A DNA stretch of 64,000 nucleotides from a virus: positions 23,178 to 87,177 of IMG/VR virus record IMGVR_UViG_3300025655_000022, one strand, 5' to 3'. The notes below the pieces were generated by a model. That model ran no database searches. It was given only the letters and a program-made list of their open reading frames with translations, and had not been told where the DNA came from. Both the position numbers and the translations under genes were made by a program. Shown here one piece after another: positions 13,386 through 50,456 of this stretch. Position 1 is the stretch's first letter. Each line of letters opens with the position of its first letter.

Positions 13386-14750
13386 TTAAAAATTAATTTT
13401 AACGACTGCTTCTACTGTGCCTTCGCCTGTTGTCTCTTTATTAGTTAGCGCACGTCCAATAATGTTACGTGCAGTTGCTTCACCGTCTTGTGCTGCTCTG
13501 GCAAAACCATTGCCTGCAGAAACTAAGCGATCGCCTTTGTTTACAGTTCCAATGACTTTAACTGGCACACGTCCATTCATAGCGATTGGTGGGTGTGTAG
13601 CATTTGAACCTGCTTTTGCGTTCATTAAGTACGCTGCACGGTCTGAGATAACGCCAAAAACGTTTTCTGATAATTCTTCAACCGCCTTAGTAATTTCAGC
13701 AATACCTCCTAACTCTACAACAGTACCTGCTTCATATTCAGCATCTGCTTCAAAGCGTTCTGCCAAGTCAGCATACTCGGCTGATGTGGCTGTTCCTTCG
13801 AAACTGTTTGCATAAACATTATTAAATTTGGTTCCGCTGGCACCCAAGTTAGTTGTGCCACCAACACCAGGCAGAATATCTGATGTTGCGCCATCAAAAA
13901 CAAGTACCTGTGTGGTTGAACCACCATCATTTACACGGAAAATAATATCTCCGTTGTTGATGAGATTATCTAAAATTACATTACCGGTTCCCAGTGGAGT
14001 AGTAATCTGAAAATCGCTGTCAACACCCACTGTTAATCCTGAGTCGTTTAAAATTCCTAGGGAACCAACAGTTGTGTCATTGGCAACGGCGCTAAGGTAA
14101 TCGGTGGCGCTGAACCCGTCAAGTTGGGCCGCATTAGTAGCCTTACCAGTAAACAATGCATTACCACTGTCAACAGTTGTGCTTAATTGAATTCCAGAAG
14201 CAATATTCGCAAAACCAGTTATTGAAGTTTGAGGTGTAAACGTTGAATCTTTACTAACAGTAGCAACAATATCATTTTCAACATATAATTTAACCACGAT
14301 GTGGTCTATGCCGCCGGAATCTCTAACAGTATCAACAATTGCACCAGATGTACCGGTGCCTGAAGTGAATGCTGGACCTACCAAAACAAAACTCGATCCA
14401 TCATAAACTTTTAATTGGCTGTTAGTTGAGTCAAACCACAAATCACCAGCAACGTTACCGGTCGGTGTGCTTGAACTTGACGTAGCAGCACCCAGGTTTT
14501 TCCATTGTGATCCGCTGTATACTTTAAGTAAGTTATTTCCTGAATCATACCATAATTGACCAGTTAATGGAGCAGTTGGGGCTGTGCTATTTGCACTGTT
14601 TTCAAGCATTTTGATAAAGTTTTCTCCCAAAAACTCACCATATCCTGCATAGTTTTTGCCGATAATAGTAATGCTACTTGATGTATTAATAGTACCGTCC
14701 GCAACTGTTGCAAAAATACTACCATTTGTTTTGTTAATTGTATAAGCCAT
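13386..14750 (-). CDS. Tail fibre/structural protein with C-terminal intramolecular-chaperone-like domain
   Basis: GKNYAGYGE...ENF, GQLWYD/GDLWFD repeats, C-terminal YADLAERF...GRVPVKV...GDRLVS...IIGRAL. Confidence 0.65.
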   Translation of the reverse strand: MAYTINKTNGSIFATVADGTINTSSSITIIGKNYAGYGEFLGENFIKMLENSANSTAPTAPLTGQLWYDSGNNLLKVYSGSQWKNLGAATSSSSTPTGNVAGDLWFDSTNSQLKVYDGSSFVLVGPAFTSGTGTSGAIVDTVRDSGGIDHIVVKLYVENDIVATVSKDSTFTPQTSITGFANIASGIQLSTTVDSGNALFTGKATNAAQLDGFSATDYLSAVANDTTVGSLGILNDSGLTVGVDSDFQITTPLGTGNVILDNLINNGDIIFRVNDGGSTTQVLVFDGATSDILPGVGGTTNLGASGTKFNNVYANSFEGTATSAEYADLAERFEADAEYEAGTVVELGGIAEITKAVEELSENVFGVISDRAAYLMNAKAGSNATHPPIAMNGRVPVKVIGTVNKGDRLVSAGNGFARAAQDGEATARNIIGRALTNKETTGEGTVEAVVKINF

Positions 14751-21400: not shown

Positions 21401-24400
21401 AACACCATTAATATCTACACTAAATGAATCAATGGTTGTGGCTGTATATAGTTCAGTTATATCAAATGTAAGTGTTGATCCATCACCAGACGGTGTTGTT
21501 GTGTTTTTTCTGGTTACGCTAATTTGTGTTCCTGATGCTGGTGCACCATAAAAAATTAACGTTGTGCCAGACAAATAATAACCGGTACTGCTCTGAACAA
21601 CGTCGTTGAACGAAACTGTTAATTGTTCTGCAGCATTGATTTTTAGATCAGTTGACAGATCGTATTGTGTGGTCTGACCGTCTGCTATAAATGTGGCTGT
21701 TTGATTTTGATATACAATCTTTTCATATGCATACACACTTTCGATGCCAGTAGCACTTACATATATCCAGTTTTCATCCTCGCTGATTGCCACAGCCGCA
21801 CCAAACTCTTGAGATTGGTCGCCTTGATCTGATACCGGAAGTGTCAAGTACTGCCAATTTTGGAAAATGTCCTGGCTTGGATTTCTATAAATTACAGTAG
21901 CCAAACCTTGGCCACTGATACTCAAGCTGGCGCCAGCTACACCCCAGTTTTTAGAAATTGCCACAGCGTTTCCATAACCCTGTGCTTTGTTCGAATCCAG
22001 GGTCAACACACTATCAAATACATATGTGTTGGCGTCTTTGTTGTAACAATAGACACCGCCGCTGGCATTCTGTCTGTCGGTATAATTAGTAGCACCAATT
22101 ATAGCACCATAACCATCAAGTGCTTGCGCTAGACTTATTCCAAAATTGTAACTATCAGTAGCACCAGGCGCAGTAGTATTTTGTTCTAAACTAAACGGTA
22201 CCTTTTTCTCATACACTTTCCATTTGCCGTTTATGTCAGCATCAACCCAAACTTTATCGCCCTGGATTAAATTACTATTATATTCTGTGTTTGCAATATC
22301 ACTTGCTTGATCGACTCTGGCTGTAGTAAGTTTGAATACAATCCCATTTCCTGTTGCAACTGATGTGCTTCCTGCAAGTGACCCAGCCACAGTAACCGAT
22401 TTTGTGTCTTCGATTGTTAGAATTTGATGGGCGCCATTGACCGTATCGTCAAAATATTTGATAATTATTAGTTCATCTCTATGTAAATCAACAGTCAAAT
22501 CAAATTCCAGTGTCAGTGTTCCATTAAGGTTATCGATCACTGACACAAGTTTTGGATTGTCTTCACGAACTCGATAGTCAATTGTTGTTGGCTCATCGGG
22601 ATACACAAACATTGATTGTGATCTTAATAAGCTACAACGATAAACATCCCAATTATATTTGTTAGATTTAACAACCCACACATATGCGCCATCGCGAACT
22701 TTGTCTAATTGTTCTGTTAAGGATGTTAAATCATCAAGATTAAAAATTGAAACATCTATATCATCACTGTTGACATATCCTGCACTAGGAAATGAAACGT
22801 CGGTTATAACTTCTGTTAATTCTGGAAAAATGTTTGTGGTTGTATTTTTGTTGCTTTGTTTATAGATATTATCGATCTGAACCAATTGATCTGCAACAGT
22901 ATCTACACCTAATGTATTGACTTCAATAATACTAGGATTGGTTTTAATTAGTTGCTCATCTAATGAAAATTCCACAAATCGCTTGTTATCATTTGCACCA
23001 TAAGTTGCACGCTTGATAGCCCAGTTTTCATAAATGTTATATTCGGCCAGATCTTTATCAAAAGTTACACCTTGAAATAATTTAACGCTCGATGGTGTTC
23101 CTTTATGATTGACAAGATCGCCATATATGTTGATTTGACTTAAATCACTAATGTTAAGACTTTCCAAATAATCTCGGGGGCGGAATCCGGTAATTCCAAA
23201 TGCAAGCAAATCAACATCGCTTTCCAGGTTAGCAGTTGTGTTATTATAGTATTTTGTCATTTGATCAGCTTTATTGCTGATATTAGGGAGCATTCCTTTG
23301 TTGATTAAATCATAATCAACTTTAATCCAGTCGTCGTATTCAAATGTTTCTGTTGGTTGTAATTTTTCAAATGCCGACCAATATGAATTTTTATATTTGA
23401 CAATGTCGCCTTTGTTGTAATTTACATTAGCGTTCCAATCAGATACATTATCCTGATTGATAATAAATCCTTGAGCATCTAGTTGCCCGTTCCATTCAAA
23501 TGTGGTAAATCCATCAATTTTGATTCGTTGTTGTCTGAGACCAGTTACTGGCTGATATATCAGATCATTAAAGATGCTAACATTGTCCATGATCAACAGA
23601 TGTTCGTAGCTGGTGCTTCTCAATCTCAAGTAACTTAATGATTTGTCAGCCAACATGACCAGTTTGAATTGATTATCCAACCGAACAACTGAGAAATCAT
23701 CTGATTTTAATGGCTGTCTGTTCTGATCAAGCGGACGTTCATTAATTGCCAGATTATTTAAATTATCGACTACTGATAATGGACGCTGGTGTTTTAATAC
23801 ACTTGCTGAAGGGTTGATGTTGATTAAACTTCCGGCAACCCAGTTCTGGTCAGCCCAGTAAACAAACTCTTGTGCCATTTGCGTCCAGGTTAGGATAATA
23901 TTGTTTTCAACATCATCAAATGTCATGCCAGCTGCTTCTAGAAAAGCACCATAACTCACTAAGAAATCAACAACACTGTTAATACTTGCAAATGTATATC
24001 CATAAGGAACACGAACTACTCTGGAAGTAAACTTAGTTGGGATCCTTATTCTGGTTGTCCCTACTGTGATTGTTTCAAAGTCTCCGCTGGTGGAACTTTC
24101 TAGAATACGGAAATATGCTTCTGTCTGACTATTACCATACACTGCATATCCATTTTCTGTGCGTTGAATCATTACACTGGAAAACTGAATATCAGCAAAC
24201 GACTGATTTTTGTAAAGCAACAGATCATAACTTTCATCAGGTATTAGCAGACTTGTGTTAGAACTATCTGGGCTGCTCTTGTCTGTGAAGATTTTAAGAT
24301 ATTTTTTATCTGTGAATGCCCCCATGCGATATGCAAGTCTGACATCTAGCTCAGATATTTCAGTTTTTAAACCATCGGTATCAGGTATTCCAGTACTACG

Positions 24401-43919: not shown

Positions 43920-44474
43920 ATGGCTAATGTAACAAAAAACTTTCTTAGCGAAATTTCAAAGCATGTTAATATTCTCGCTAATATCAGTCTAATACTTATA
44001 GATGATGATTTTGAAAAACTTCGCTCGATTTTATTAAGAACAAAAAAAGAAACTTTTCAACACAACGATTATTATGTTATATGTCACGGTGATACAGACT
44101 TTTATCTTCCTGGAAGCCCTTATGGATTATCTATTTTTAATCTTGTTAGGACATTCCAAGAAGTTGACATTTCGTTAGGGCGTGTAATTTTTGTAACTGA
44201 TCATTTAGGTATCGAAGAAGAATTTAAATTCCTTATTCCTCAAAAATTACATCAGTTTGATTTACCATTGATCATCGATAATTGTATGAGCGCATCGTCA
44301 GACCTAATGCTAGATAATTTTTGTTATCCAGATATTAATGTTAATCCAGCTAAAATTAAAAAACATGCGTTATGCATGATGGGGGCAAAAAGAATTCATC
44401 GCAACGGATTATTTCATTTTTTAAAAAATAATAACCTATTAGAAAAAATTGTAACATCCTATAATAATACGTGA
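43920..44474 (+). CDS. Hypothetical protein, N-terminal half of the GT-like family
   Basis: Ends ALCMMGAKRIHR..., similar to YMCLNRKPKPHR in 4030-5085; AT-rich. Confidence 0.5.
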   Translation: MANVTKNFLSEISKHVNILANISLILIDDDFEKLRSILLRTKKETFQHNDYYVICHGDTDFYLPGSPYGLSIFNLVRTFQEVDISLGRVIFVTDHLGIEEEFKFLIPQKLHQFDLPLIIDNCMSASSDLMLDNFCYPDINVNPAKIKKHALCMMGAKRIHRNGLFHFLKNNNLLEKIVTSYNNT

Positions 44475-45028
44475 TCATGAAACATAGAATATACACTAAA
44501 CCATTTACTAGAATTAACGAAAATTGGAATACCTATGGAGAGCTAAACACTTTACCAACTGATGAAAAATATTCAGACAACATTATCACCGGCTCTGCTA
44601 ACGGACATCATATTAACAGACATAATGATATTGTCAAAGACTTTTATCAATTAATTGGTATTGACATTGTTACCGAAACCGTGTTCGATTACAAATATCC
44701 GCGGATATCTGAAAAAATAATTCGTCCTATAATTAACAAAAGACCGTTTTTAGTTGTAGGTGCACCTAACACACTAAAATTTTTATGCAGCAAAGGTTTT
44801 CAAACTTTTGCTCCATTTATTAATGAAGATTATGACCAAATAGTTGATCCAGTGTATCGTATGAAATTTTTACTTGACGAAATAACCCGATTAACACAAA
44901 TGCCCATTGACAAAATAAAAGATTTTGTGTTAGAGTATACACCTATCTTGAATCATAATTTTAATATTTTAAAAGACTTAGAGCAGCAAGAACTAAAGTC
45001 AATTTCAAAATTATTATCAAAATTATAA
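44471..45028 (+). CDS. C-terminal half of the GT-like family
   Basis: DIVTETVF...ISEKIIRPI..KRPFLVVG...GFQTF...INEDYD. Confidence 0.55.
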   Translation: MIMKHRIYTKPFTRINENWNTYGELNTLPTDEKYSDNIITGSANGHHINRHNDIVKDFYQLIGIDIVTETVFDYKYPRISEKIIRPIINKRPFLVVGAPNTLKFLCSKGFQTFAPFINEDYDQIVDPVYRMKFLLDEITRLTQMPIDKIKDFVLEYTPILNHNFNILKDLEQQELKSISKLLSKL

Positions 45029-47426: not shown

Positions 47427-47439
47427 CACAATACTAAAT

Positions 47440-47900
47440 CGTTAAAAGTCTAGCTTGGGGCGGTTAATACAAGCGGTAACACTCTCTGTTGTGAGGAGGA
47501 CACCTAAATCGTGGGTAACGACACGGACATCAATCACTATCCTTAACAGGACGCTAACACGACATGCCTGTGAACTTTGTAACGCTTATTTGTAGTTCAC
47601 TAACGTGTTTGATCGATGTATGGCAACACAAAAAGGCTAAAAGATGCTGCTCTGTAAAAAAAATCAACAGCAAGTTTGCATATAGCGGGCAATTAGTTAT
47701 ATGTAAACTCCCGTCAGAATAAAGTCTAGAGTAGGGGGTACCGGCTGACCGCCTCCGCAAAATGATCATTATAAAATACATTTTAATCTCTTATAATTGC
47801 TGGCTAGCTCACTCGACGAAAGATGAATTAGTTTAACTTTACCCTCGGATGGGTAAAGTTTGACCAGTCTATCTGACGAAATATGTTCAAGAAAACATAT
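47440..47900 (+). ncRNA. Putative large structured non-coding RNA, family unknown
   Basis: More than ten stems including nested long-range pairs, with G-U pairs that favour the plus strand; no credible ORF. Confidence 0.65.
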
Positions 47901-47962
47901 TAAATTTATTTCACTTACATATTGATATCACACTATTACATAATATTCAGAGTCTTAAAAAA

Positions 47963-48006
47963 TAAGATTGAGCGTAAGCGAAATCTTAGATATGCGTAGC
48001 ATATCT
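47963..48006. repeat. Tandem inverted repeats with GC-GTAA-GC and GC-GTA-GC mini-hairpin loops
   Basis: TAAGATT-GAGCGTAAGCGA-AATCTTA (47963-47988) and AGATATGC-GTA-GCATATCT (47988-48006). Confidence 0.75.
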
Positions 48007-48082
48007 CCTGATATTAAATCTATTGTGTGATATGACAAAATTCTGATATTTGGAAACACATTTTCTTATTCATGCGTTCATG

Positions 48083-48116
48083 AAAAAGCCCCTAGCTTTG
48101 GCATACCAGGGGCTTT
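48083..48116 (-). terminator. Intrinsic terminator of the leftward chaperone operon
   Basis: AAAGCCCCT-N14-AGGGGCTTT with an A5 tract on the plus strand (U tract on minus). Confidence 0.7.
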
Positions 48117-48150
48117 GATTTGGGCACGTTACATTGCGTAACAAATTTAT

Positions 48151-48483
48151 TTATGCAAATGTGTCTGGCCAGTCTCGATAATATGCGTGTTTGATATCCT
48201 CTACAAATTGATTAAACGATTTGTGTTTGGTTTCCAGTTCACCTTCCAGAGGGGCTACACGCTGAAACGCCTCTTCTAATTGTGCCATGTTCTTGAATTC
48301 CATCATGATATGCCATTCAGGCAAATCAGGAATACTTGCGAAACCCATTTTGCAACGAGTAATGCGATAGCCTTCGCATTTTCCTTCAGATTTCAGATGT
48401 TCTAAAAATCCTTTCATGTTGTTAACCCAATCGATATCCGAAATATCCGTGGACTTTTCAGCCCAAATATGATAAATGTCCAT
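48151..48483 (-). CDS. Dimeric alpha+beta barrel protein (DUF6614-like)
   Basis: MDIYHIW...FLEHLKSEG...YRITRCKMGF...WHIMMEF...QLEEAF...YRDWPD; family recalled from motif pattern. Confidence 0.6.
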   Translation of the reverse strand: MDIYHIWAEKSTDISDIDWVNNMKGFLEHLKSEGKCEGYRITRCKMGFASIPDLPEWHIMMEFKNMAQLEEAFQRVAPLEGELETKHKSFNQFVEDIKHAYYRDWPDTFA

Positions 48484-48905
48484 TATGTTCTTGGTCCTAA
48501 AATTTCAAATCCGTCAATTTGACGTTTGTATTCGGTAGCTTCGCCTAAGTACAAATAGTCAAACCCTCTACTTTTATAAAACGCACATTCACTTCGTAAG
48601 CTAGAAATTCCTAAATGTAGCTTAGGATTTTGATAATCCCATGCAAATTGAATGGCTTCTACATTTTTATTATTATAAACACGCATTAAGCTAAATGCAA
48701 CCAATTTATCTTGATCATAATATCCTAGAACATCATTTGTGAAATATTCCTCGGTAAAAATAGGCATTACAGATCGGAATTTTTTATGAGCACAATATGT
48801 ATTATAAATGCGCTCTAATTCAATTGGATTTGGATTTACAATAAATTCAAAATTATCCAAAATGCTGTAATTGGTATCTGCCAGTCGTATACGGGCATAT
48901 ATCAT
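48483..48905 (-). CDS. GNAT-fold protein resembling the C-terminal domain of aminoacyl-tRNA-protein transferases (ATE/Bpt)
   Basis: YYDQDKLVAFS...FAWDY..PKLHLGISSLRSECAFYKSRGFDYLYLG....YKRQIDGFE. Confidence 0.62.
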   Translation of the reverse strand: MIYARIRLADTNYSILDNFEFIVNPNPIELERIYNTYCAHKKFRSVMPIFTEEYFTNDVLGYYDQDKLVAFSLMRVYNNKNVEAIQFAWDYQNPKLHLGISSLRSECAFYKSRGFDYLYLGEATEYKRQIDGFEILGPRT

Positions 48906-49405
48906 GATCTGGGATCCTTCCTGTTTGTAAACAAATCATCTAAATATTCTGAATCCCATCCATTATAGTAACCTTTTTTGTATAGTTGCACACTAGCATC
49001 GTCGAGATTTTTAGTTAGAGCACAAATGCTTAATGCATACGTTCCTTGATTAAAACAAACTCCATTTTGTTCTTCGTAATGTCCAGGATGATCTGATAAG
49101 CTAATAAGCCCAGCATTTTTCATTGGTCCGTTGTTTGCAGCGTCGATATGATCATTAAATTCGTCAGCACCCCATAATTCTGGGTCGTATATGTAAACAA
49201 CAACTTCCCAGTTTTCCATACCTTTTTTGCTTAACATTAGCAAGTCTAAATACGGATCTCCGCCTAAACGAAAATCAATTTGATTTTTTAAGCGTGCTTG
49301 TTTAGCATACGGGCACGGTGGAAATCCTCCTAATGCTGGGTGAGGAACTTCGATAAAGTTTTGTAACCAATCTATAACTGACTGTTTTGCTTCGGTTAAA
49401 TTCAT
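48902..49405 (-). CDS. CPYA-motif protein (DUF1415/DUF6875-like)
   Basis: WLQNFIEVPHPALGGFPPCPYAKQA...DHP...L.DAS..LYKKGYY..W. Confidence 0.55.
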   Translation of the reverse strand: MNLTEAKQSVIDWLQNFIEVPHPALGGFPPCPYAKQARLKNQIDFRLGGDPYLDLLMLSKKGMENWEVVVYIYDPELWGADEFNDHIDAANNGPMKNAGLISLSDHPGHYEEQNGVCFNQGTYALSICALTKNLDDASVQLYKKGYYNGWDSEYLDDLFTNRKDPRS

Positions 49406-49635
49406 TAAAAATACGGGAGTCCTGATTTTTTGGTTGTTTCCAGATTGTCTTTGAGCAGTTTTCCAATGCTCTCACGTTCAGAATTACTTAGCATCAGTGC
49501 ATGATCGTAACTGATTCCGCCGCGCATGCCCCAGGATATTCTGAGCGATTCTTCTTTGATGGCCACACACTCTTTTTCCATGTCATCCACTAGCCTGGAT
49601 ATCTGGTCAGAATCCAGCGTGAGCAGCCTTACCCG
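49405..49635 (-). CDS. gp51-like tail chaperone C-terminal segment, probably reached by -1 frameshift
   Basis: ISWGMRGGISYDHALMLSNSERE. The frame stays open upstream to the T_TTT_TTC site. Confidence 0.6.
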   Translation of the reverse strand, partial: RVRLLTLDSDQISRLVDDMEKECVAIKEESLRISWGMRGGISYDHALMLSNSERESIGKLLKDNLETTKKSGLPYF

Positions 49636-50456
49636 AAAAAATTCGACATATCAAATGTAAACGGTTGAGCATATTCATGACCACAATGTGTGCATTTGAT
49701 GTTAAGTGGTTTGAGTTCGCTTTCTGTCTTTAACTTAATAACACGATCACGTAACCGATCAAACACTTCACGATCGCAATTACGTAAAAACTCGTCGATG
49801 TGTTTGCGATCCTGTACTACTGTTTCTGGTGTTTTAATGGCAGCAATGCCTTGGCCCACTGCCTTTAGGGTGAGTTCGCCTATTTTTCGAAACGCATCAG
49901 CAAGAATATTAAGTTTTTGCTTGTCATCCATGTCAGTATTGTCAATGACTGATACCAGTTTTTGTTCTTCAAATTGAAGTACATTGTTTTCTGACATTTG
50001 TTTGTAATTTAACGGTCTGAAATAAACTTCTAAATCACCAATGATTTCAGGAGTTCTGAAATCTGGCGCTGCCAACCCTTCTATTACGGTACGCAAATCT
50101 AGTGCATATGTGGATTCTTCACCACATTTTGTACAAGTGGTGTCAATATCCATGCTGTGCCCATAACTTGCAATTCTTATGGCAACTAGTATGGAATCTA
50201 AATCAACACTGGGCACTGCCCAGGCATTTTTGATGTTTGGAACGCAACTCTGAATTACATCAACTACGGCTTGTCCATTGAACAGCGCATCTGGTGTTCG
50301 ATAGGTGATTTCATCAATGGCCGTCATGGGAAACACTGGTAGTTCATGAGTTTCAGTCATGTTTAATGTATCCTTGGCATAATATTGACCGTCACTGGGC
50401 AGTTTAATGTAAATTGCAGGGCGTCTAAAATAAGTTGTTAAAGGGTTATTTTCCAT
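49629..50456 (-). CDS. Baseplate hub/tail assembly chaperone, gp26-like
   Basis: IYIKLPSDG...PMTAIDE...DLDSILVAIRIASYG...CTKC...CTHC...NFFG; divergent from the tape-measure-like gene. Confidence 0.75.
   Translation of the reverse strand: MENNPLTTYFRRPAIYIKLPSDGQYYAKDTLNMTETHELPVFPMTAIDEITYRTPDALFNGQAVVDVIQSCVPNIKNAWAVPSVDLDSILVAIRIASYGHSMDIDTTCTKCGEESTYALDLRTVIEGLAAPDFRTPEIIGDLEVYFRPLNYKQMSENNVLQFEEQKLVSVIDNTDMDDKQKLNILADAFRKIGELTLKAVGQGIAAIKTPETVVQDRKHIDEFLRNCDREVFDRLRDRVIKLKTESELKPLNIKCTHCGHEYAQPFTFDMSNFFG

Follow-up and report, generated by a model that had tools for sequence, protein, structure and literature searches.

The window analysed here is a stretch of 64,000 nucleotides from IMG/VR virus record IMGVR_UViG_3300025655_000022 (positions 23,178 to 87,177), a record of 87 kb with an estimated completeness of 25%. 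On its minus strand, three short genes encode a protein with a CPYA motif (hereafter CPYA), a stand-alone GNAT domain of the ATE_C type and a DUF6614 protein. We found that these three genes are the local copy of a conserved, mobile functional module of uncultured aquatic T4-like and jumbo phages. The core of the module is formed by CPYA and the stand-alone ATE_C GNAT, and DUF6614 and an AGAT-family amidinotransferase are frequent extra members. The features of the cassette are as follows.

49405..48902, minus strand: gene of the CPYA protein, 167 amino acids, motif PPCPYAKQA (open reading frame call).
48905..48483, minus strand: gene of the ATE_C-like protein, 140 amino acids (open reading frame call and Pfam).
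48483..48151, minus strand: gene of the DUF6614 protein, 110 amino acids (open reading frame call and Pfam).
48083..48116, minus strand: intrinsic terminator with a 12-bp stem (48116..48085), a loop of 8 nucleotides and a U run.

The three open reading frames (ORFs) are coupled by ATGA and TAATG overlaps, as a preliminary description of this DNA had proposed, and these overlaps were recovered to the nucleotide. The stop codon TGA of the CPYA gene (48904-48902) overlaps the start codon ATG of the ATE_C gene (48905-48903) in an ATGA junction, and the stop codon TAA of the latter (48485-48483) shares one base with the start codon ATG of the DUF6614 gene (48483-48481) in a TAATG junction. The cassette had also been described as closed by a terminator, and a hairpin followed by a U run indeed begins 35 nucleotides past the DUF6614 stop codon. 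The fold has a predicted energy of -22.8 kcal/mol (z = -2.96), and one of 200 shuffled sequences was equally stable. A consensus terminator scan missed this minus-strand hairpin because of its 8-nucleotide loop and the A/U tracts inside the stem. Since an A tract lies upstream and a U tract on the opposite side, the terminator could act in both directions. The ORFs are real beyond chance: relatives at E ≤ 0.001 account for 783 of 787 candidates for the 140-amino-acid protein in a large protein collection and for 306 of 317 candidates for the 167-amino-acid protein.

The 140-amino-acid protein matches the Pfam ATE_C model with 30.2 bits (cut-off 25, E = 7.6e-07), which reproduces the C-terminal pattern of the aminoacyl-tRNA-protein transferases spelled out in the preliminary description. 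Its score against the NCBIfam model of the full-length arginyltransferase is 28.3 bits, far under the cut-off of 252, and the profile of its family retrieves Ate1 among the solved structures at E = 0.013. An exhaustive phmmer search gave 142 cluster representatives, the majority of about 140 amino acids; some relatives are Bpt-like proteins of 225-265 amino acids (E down to 1.3e-30), and the query aligns to their C-terminal two thirds. The phage protein starts at the ATE_C boundary and ends where the Bpt-like proteins end. In the longer relatives the N-terminal extension lacks the Cys motifs of ATE_N, with no Cys in the equivalent stretch, and the ATE_N model matched neither the 140-amino-acid protein nor any of the ten viral long forms scanned. 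The Cys-bearing N-terminal domain had been reported as lacking, and these comparisons agree: the canonical acceptor-binding half is absent from the protein. The distinction from an ordinary acetyl-CoA GNAT also holds by family, because no acetyltransferase model of Pfam matches the 140-amino-acid protein at E ≤ 1. Some of the long relatives match Acetyltransf_6 weakly.

The donor side was then compared residue by residue. Alignment to yeast Ate1 pairs F87 with F258, W89 with W260, S102 with S273 and E106 with D277. Of the 65 unique family ORFs compared, all keep F87 and W89 (65/65 each), 63 keep E106 and 61 keep S102. In Ate1, F258 and W260 are described as the stacking partners of the 3′ adenosine of the aminoacyl-tRNA (PMC13592012). 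The arginine pocket of Ate1 is given as Ser255, Ser273, Glu277 and Tyr289, with the variants E277K and E277A inactive and E277D active; the four positions 255, 273, 277 and 289 are occupied by Ala, Ala, Gln and Leu in Bpt, which is specific for Leu, and the acidic N-terminal residue of the acceptor is recognised in ATE_N (PMC9351520). The pocket of the phage protein reads Ala, Ser, Glu, Leu, including Ala84 and Leu118. Since the Phe/Trp pair, the Ser and Glu106 are kept, the half that binds the donor is complete and suggests a basic aminoacyl group as its ligand, and we predict that the protein is an aminoacyl-tRNA-dependent transferase. The short forms carry, in addition, two extra invariant Cys, C38 and C107 (65/65 ORFs), which are absent from Ate1; the second position is also without Cys in the long viral forms. 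Together with the single invariant Cys of CPYA, C38 and C107 could make up a metal or redox site common to the two proteins.

Whether the three genes co-occur elsewhere was a point on which the preliminary description made its own proposal depend, and we found that they do. ORFs were called in the fetched loci and searched with hidden Markov models (HMMs) of the four families. The set seeded with ATE_C comprised 43 non-redundant loci from IMG/VR in which the ATE_C gene has 2.5 kb or more of sequence on either side; they were taken from the best 80 loci and lean to close relatives. Within 3 kb of the ATE_C gene, CPYA was present in 42 of these 43 loci, DUF6614 in 30 and the amidinotransferase in 25; CPYA and DUF6614 were both near it in 29, and all four genes stood together in 13. 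The reciprocal set, seeded with DUF6614 (45 non-redundant loci), contained the ATE_C gene in 44, CPYA in 43 and the amidinotransferase in 21. In 48 of 64 non-redundant loci the CPYA gene lies directly upstream of the ATE_C gene with a gap of at most 30 nucleotides, and the two usually overlap. This association is maintained across at least eight gene orders and strand arrangements. The flanking genes vary by lineage (baseplate hub, tape measure, gp23, gp19, UvsY, helicase, 5′-3′ exonuclease, MazG, RpiB), and no further gene family recurs across the module contexts examined. No six-frame segment in 242 loci matched two of the four families, as a fusion would. The long-form ATE relatives (loci L094-L129) have DUF6614 and CPYA as neighbours on the opposite strand, and more distant ATE forms, of about 255 amino acids, stand alone.

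The module is widespread in IMG/VR, with at least 560 confirmed relatives of the 140-amino-acid protein among the 598 pattern matches listed, and 589 confirmed among 600 matches in the DUF6614 pattern scan. Neither blastn of the region nor tblastn of the 140-amino-acid protein found anything in the GenBank phages (50,697 records). Among cellular genomes, taken one per species, two relatives were found in 11 pattern matches, both in metagenome-assembled genomes (MAGs). One Haliscomenobacter MAG (loci L090-L093) holds two copies of a CPYA and DUF6614 cassette, on contigs C1 and C3, and the copy on C3 adjoins phage hub and tape-measure genes; these contigs are likely phage DNA binned with, or integrated in, a possible host. 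In a sample of the phylum of this MAG, DUF6614 occurred in one of 401 genomes, which was that MAG itself. DUF6875, the Pfam family to which CPYA is compared below, occurred in none of 201 genomes, a blank that shows little since the controls were silent as well. A literature search, with supplementary files outside its scope, returned no paper on this module or on a phage protein of the ATE_C type. One related record, 328 kb long and with terminal repeats, is rated complete, and we therefore take these viruses to be jumbo phages.

The CPYA family contains a single invariant Cys, C31, within a P-C-P-x-A loop in which P30 is nearly invariant. The alignment further shows W13, D105-H106, E111, N119, Y147 and W150 as invariant. 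The protein of the window scores 18.5 bits against Pfam DUF6875, below the cut-off of 24.5. Among 37 members of the family searched against Pfam at E ≤ 0.01, nine matched DUF6875 (best E = 3e-05), four matched DUF1415 and none matched another family; the highest-scoring member reached 24.1 bits against DUF6875 over model positions 2-96 of 178. The protein also matches phrog_28122 (3.4e-11), a phrog of unknown function, and its neighbours in the Atlas carry DUF6875 and DUF1415. CPYA thus appears to be a weak, partial relative of these two families. For DUF1415, one of the families against which the preliminary description had suggested a check, the similarity exists in those four members and stays below the cut-off.

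The DUF6875 family, named 'cytochrome P422', has recently been shown to consist of Cys-ligated b-heme enzymes that bind heme through the motif RxGxVCP (bioRxiv 10.64898/2025.12.11.692455). In the CPYA alignment only the C-P of this motif is matched (C31-P32), and no R, G or V is conserved at the motif spacing. Of the heme cofactor idea raised earlier, the route through YqcI/YcgG failed, and the sub-threshold similarity to DUF6875 remains as a weak lead; heme binding by CPYA is such a lead and not a finding. The comparison with YqcI/YcgG was negative in both searches: none of the 37 members matched PF08892 at E ≤ 0.01, and hhalign against four fetched members gave a probability of 5%, with the P-C motif common to both sides as the anchor of the alignment. 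Distant CPYA homologues (27-30% identity) were also found in cultured phages, in four GenBank records that represent three phages: Puniceispirillum phage HMO-2011 and Roseobacter phages CRP-810 and CRP-345. The cultured SAR116 phage HMO-2011 (locus L088, 3971-4498) encodes a CPYA-family protein with an HMM E value of 1.5e-25, and the HMMs did not find ATE_C, DUF6614 or amidinotransferase genes in the 8.5-kb stretch searched. CPYA-like proteins therefore occur outside the module too, and HMO-2011 offers a possible handle for studying this family alone.

The third gene had been tentatively connected with DUF6614, and this assignment is now firm. The 110-amino-acid protein scores 92.2 bits against the Pfam model (cut-off 25, E = 2.9e-26), with residues 1-108 aligned on model positions 1-107 of 116, nearly the full length. 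It is the most conserved of the three proteins: an alignment of 15 diverse copies has a mean column identity of 59% and 22 invariant residues, including Y4, Y39, T42, R43, K45, H87, N91, H99, R103 and D104. No solved structure matches its profile at E ≤ 10. For the alpha+beta barrel suggested in the preliminary description, a putative ferredoxin-like fold of the type beta-alpha-beta-beta-alpha-beta, the lead is a weak link in the Atlas from DUF6614 to the DUF6974/DUF4286 clusters (score 0.91, 151 shared features). The anti-Druantia protein Druad1 carries the label 'DUF6614' in a preprint (bioRxiv 10.1101/2024.04.14.589459). We rejected it as a guide to the present protein, since Druad1, as that text describes it, has 44 amino acids and no BLAST homologues, in contrast to a highly conserved protein of 110 amino acids.

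The fourth member of the module was recognised at locus L005, where a gene of 383 amino acids lies between the ATE_C and DUF6614 genes. Its product matches the structures of AGAT (L-arginine:glycine amidinotransferase, 1.1e-12), HsvA, SxtG and StrB1. The virus record of the window has its own homologue of 347 amino acids at record positions 13665-14708, about 57 kb away and outside the window; against AGAT it gives E = 2.4e-19 with three aligned stretches that include the motifs H-x-D-A and G-G-x-x-C-x-T. In related records that lack an amidinotransferase gene at the cassette, the gene was found elsewhere in 5 of 5, with several paralogues in some of them, and in 1 of 5 further cassette records that are only 3-62% complete. 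DUF6614 was found elsewhere in none of five records lacking it near the cassette, which are fragmentary (4-39% complete).

Several observations were made around these amidinotransferase genes. Records G402, G403 and G406 have amidinotransferase paralogues at two to three separate places each, and one of the G403 copies is broken by TGA codons. The copy in the record of the window (locus L255, 1489-2532) is intact, and its start is overlapped by an ORF of 402 amino acids without a Pfam match. A paralogue of this ORF lies immediately upstream of it, and ORFs of the window at 43920-45028 have a C-terminal motif in common with it. Also on the L005 contig are genes for an Fe/Mn superoxide dismutase and for a B12-binding radical SAM protein, and beside the module (L005 3895-4113) lies a 72-amino-acid ORF whose product may be translation initiation factor IF-1.

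Upstream of the cassette, two further genes were delineated on the same strand.

49405..49590, minus strand: ORF of 61 amino acids, context only, translationally coupled to the CPYA gene.
50456..49629, minus strand: T4 gp26-type baseplate hub gene (Pfam T4_baseplate 65.8 bits, phrog_150).

The junction between the 61-amino-acid ORF and the CPYA gene is a TAATG at 49407-49403. The ORF and the hub gene occur together, in 29 and 30 of 88 loci respectively, and the ORF is absent from the other module contexts; it travels with the baseplate-hub gene and not with the module. The preliminary description had the cassette appended to a tail-chaperone gene. The gene upstream is instead the gp26-type hub gene, and the chaperone identity is not proven. 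Downstream, a long AT-rich non-coding stretch (window 47430-48150) separates the cassette from a convergent PDDEXK endonuclease gene. No tRNA gene was detected in the 64-kb window. Nearly the full stretch is contained in freshwater metagenomes (seven runs from four studies, each with at least 0.91 of the sampled words), and two of the samples may be where this DNA came from; estuary and marine-sediment runs contain small shares of it, which are no evidence of habitat. The sequencing runs listed for the stretch include no RNA data.

What could such a set of proteins do? The reading that we favour, and to which we give an even chance, is an arginine/guanidine-centred, aminoacyl-tRNA-dependent pathway that acts on a non-canonical acceptor and yields a guanidino compound or group. 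The GNAT would bind an aminoacyl-tRNA through its Phe/Trp pair and hold the basic side chain of the donor residue, most likely Arg and possibly Lys, against Glu106, before transferring this residue to an amine. Because the ATE_N pocket for a protein N-terminal Asp or Glu is absent, the acceptor would not be the canonical one; a small amine, or a substrate presented by a partner protein, seems most likely. CPYA, through the single invariant Cys of a PCP loop that recalls those of the thiolate-heme families DUF6875/P422, may oxidise (hydroxylate) the acceptor or the product, or may alternatively supply the missing acceptor-binding half. The amidinotransferase would move the guanidino group of free Arg onto the same scaffold, and DUF6614 may be a small tailoring enzyme or a carrier. 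The net product would be a compound or a group bearing arginine or guanidine and made during infection. More generally, the module probably makes or attaches an arginine-like group while the phage replicates in its host. The preliminary description had left two options, the tagging of host or defence proteins and a small pathway for a modified amino acid or peptide. Since the amidinotransferase is found in about half of the loci and in an unlinked copy here, it favours the small pathway over the tagging of host proteins, and neither option is shown. The data establish that the genes are real, that three of the four proteins belong to the families named, that the donor-side residues are conserved and that the genes co-occur; the identity of the donor, the acceptor, the binding of heme, the sequence of the reactions and the product are inferred.

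Several points weigh against a small-molecule product, and some of them also speak for an attachment to proteins, in which the GNAT would add Arg or another residue to host, defence or virion proteins. CPYA would then be an acceptor-recognition or priming subunit replacing ATE_N, possibly by first oxidising a residue, as Cys oxidation precedes arginylation in eukaryotes, and the amidinotransferase and DUF6614 would serve as adaptors or as additional enzymes of protein modification. The ATE/Bpt enzymes characterised so far all act on the N-termini of proteins or peptides, as PMC9351520 describes for the known members, and not on small molecules. Many loci hold only CPYA and the GNAT, and the near inseparability of these two, often as immediate neighbours, fits a two-subunit enzyme; the long forms with an N-terminal extension also keep CPYA. 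The cassette of the window is coupled to late baseplate genes, and the virion proteome of cyanophage S-SCSM2R is described as containing an amidinotransferase homologue (PMC12801897). The coupling to late genes and this virion homologue fit a modification of proteins or of the virion equally. Amidinotransferase paralogues are common in these jumbo phages, so that the unlinked copy in the record of the window may serve another pathway. In the flanks examined, genes for a redox partner, a transporter or the supply of precursors do not accompany the module. The heme link of CPYA is weak, all Pfam scores being below cut-off with coverage of at most the N-terminal half, and the CPYA profile retrieves no solved structure at E ≤ 10. 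Protein attachment has its own difficulties; we consider it less likely than the pathway, but it is the main alternative and has to be taken seriously. The GNAT has no pocket for acidic N-termini, nor is it accompanied by a domain that carries the Cys motifs of ATE_N. AGAT-family amidinotransferases are known to act on small amines and are not known to act on proteins. CPYA and the GNAT were fused in none of the 242 loci, and known defence and anti-defence models gave no match (PADLOC defence models, 0 matches for five proteins).

Two other explanations fit fewer of the data. The module might alter or divert the amino acid on a charged tRNA, by hydroxylation or amidination, and thereby re-program translation or counter tRNA-directed host defences. 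The conservation of only the donor-binding half of the enzyme, with partners that are enzymes of arginine/guanidine chemistry, would agree with such a role, but we know of no precedent for an ATE-type GNAT working in this way, the window is devoid of tRNA genes and the flanks show no tie to translation genes; we hold this to be improbable. Still more improbable is that the genes are unrelated and merely co-travel in a hypervariable island, the GNAT being an ordinary acyl-CoA acetyltransferase. Variable islands of small ORFs are indeed typical of T4-like phages, and the NCBIfam arginyltransferase score lies far below its cut-off. The linkage nevertheless persists through many rearrangements and genomic contexts, the GNAT of the window matches no acetyltransferase family at E ≤ 1, and its aminoacyl-tRNA-binding residues, the Phe/Trp pair, are invariant. 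Between the favoured pathway and the modification of proteins, one can also conceive a phage machine that would oxidise and then arginylate, in which CPYA, as a thiolate-heme protein, replaces ATE_N in trans and serves a minimal Arg-tRNA transferase. CPYA would create or present the acceptor, and further chemistry would come from the amidinotransferase and DUF6614. This more specific proposal we put forward tentatively and with some doubt.

The arginine/guanidine pathway that we favour, like its alternatives, would extend what is known of these enzymes. To our knowledge, Ate1/Bpt-type aminoacyl-tRNA transferases are known only as cellular enzymes of the protein N-degron pathways. Here hundreds of contigs from uncultured phages carry, as a fixed feature, a domain-minimal ATE form, which is nearly always paired with the uncharacterised CPYA protein and often accompanied by an arginine amidinotransferase. 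If a guanidino compound is made, the module would represent a novel class of viral metabolism supplied from the pool of charged tRNAs; if proteins are tagged, it would be a new viral route to rewriting host or virion proteins. Should the machine that oxidises and then arginylates prove true, it would be the first virus-encoded aminoacyl-tRNA-dependent natural-product pathway, or a case of viral redox-gated arginylation. The module also places three functionally uncharacterised families, DUF6614, the DUF1415-like proteins and the short DUF6875-like proteins, in a genomic context and offers each of them a partner that can be tested.

The closest known relatives of the GNAT are Ate1 and Bpt. The phage protein shares with them an ATE_C domain above cut-off, the adenosine-stacking Phe/Trp pair, and the Ser and acidic residues of the arginine pocket. 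It differs by the lack of ATE_N, of the Cys cluster and of the C-terminal variable domain, by its length of only 140 amino acids, by its pairing with CPYA and by the two extra invariant Cys, C38 and C107. Two positions of its pocket, Ala84 and Leu118, are as in Bpt, whereas Glu stands where Bpt has Gln (position 277). In the biosynthesis of dehydrophos and pacidamycin, other tRNA-dependent ligases of the GNAT type use small molecules as substrates. As far as its logic goes, the proposed pathway comes closest to that of argolaphos. Its thiolate-heme enzyme AglA/AlpD is reported to hydroxylate the guanidine of an Arg already amide-linked to aminomethylphosphonate, and the GNATs AlpF/AlpO of the cluster have been proposed as aminoacyl-tRNA ligases (PMC8976061, PMC12866846). 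The likeness would lie in the pairing of a GNAT, proposed to ligate a tRNA-borne amino acid, with a small Cys-ligated heme enzyme. The argolaphos GNAT is, however, of the Acetyltransf_6 type with 342 amino acids, the heme enzyme is a YqcI/YcgG protein without significant profile similarity to CPYA, and the genes belong to a Streptomyces phosphonate cluster and not to a phage module.

P422 (DUF6875) and DUF1415 are the only Pfam families matched by CPYA members; in them, as in CPYA, an N-terminal helix leads into a loop that contains an invariant Cys-Pro. CPYA differs from P422 in its length (167 amino acids against 180-300) and in that inspection of its alignment revealed none of the P422 motifs for substrate binding; its scores are sub-cut-off, the coverage is at most positions 2-96 of 178, and the R, G and V of RxGxVCP are not kept. 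Finally, the amidinotransferase of the module, a relative of the AGAT-family enzymes AGAT, StrB1, SxtG and HsvA, aligns end to end with AGAT and has the His and Cys catalytic motifs. It differs from these enzymes in its placement: in many phages its gene sits inside the cassette, with the GNAT gene on one side and the DUF6614 gene on the other, and in the genome studied here it is unlinked.

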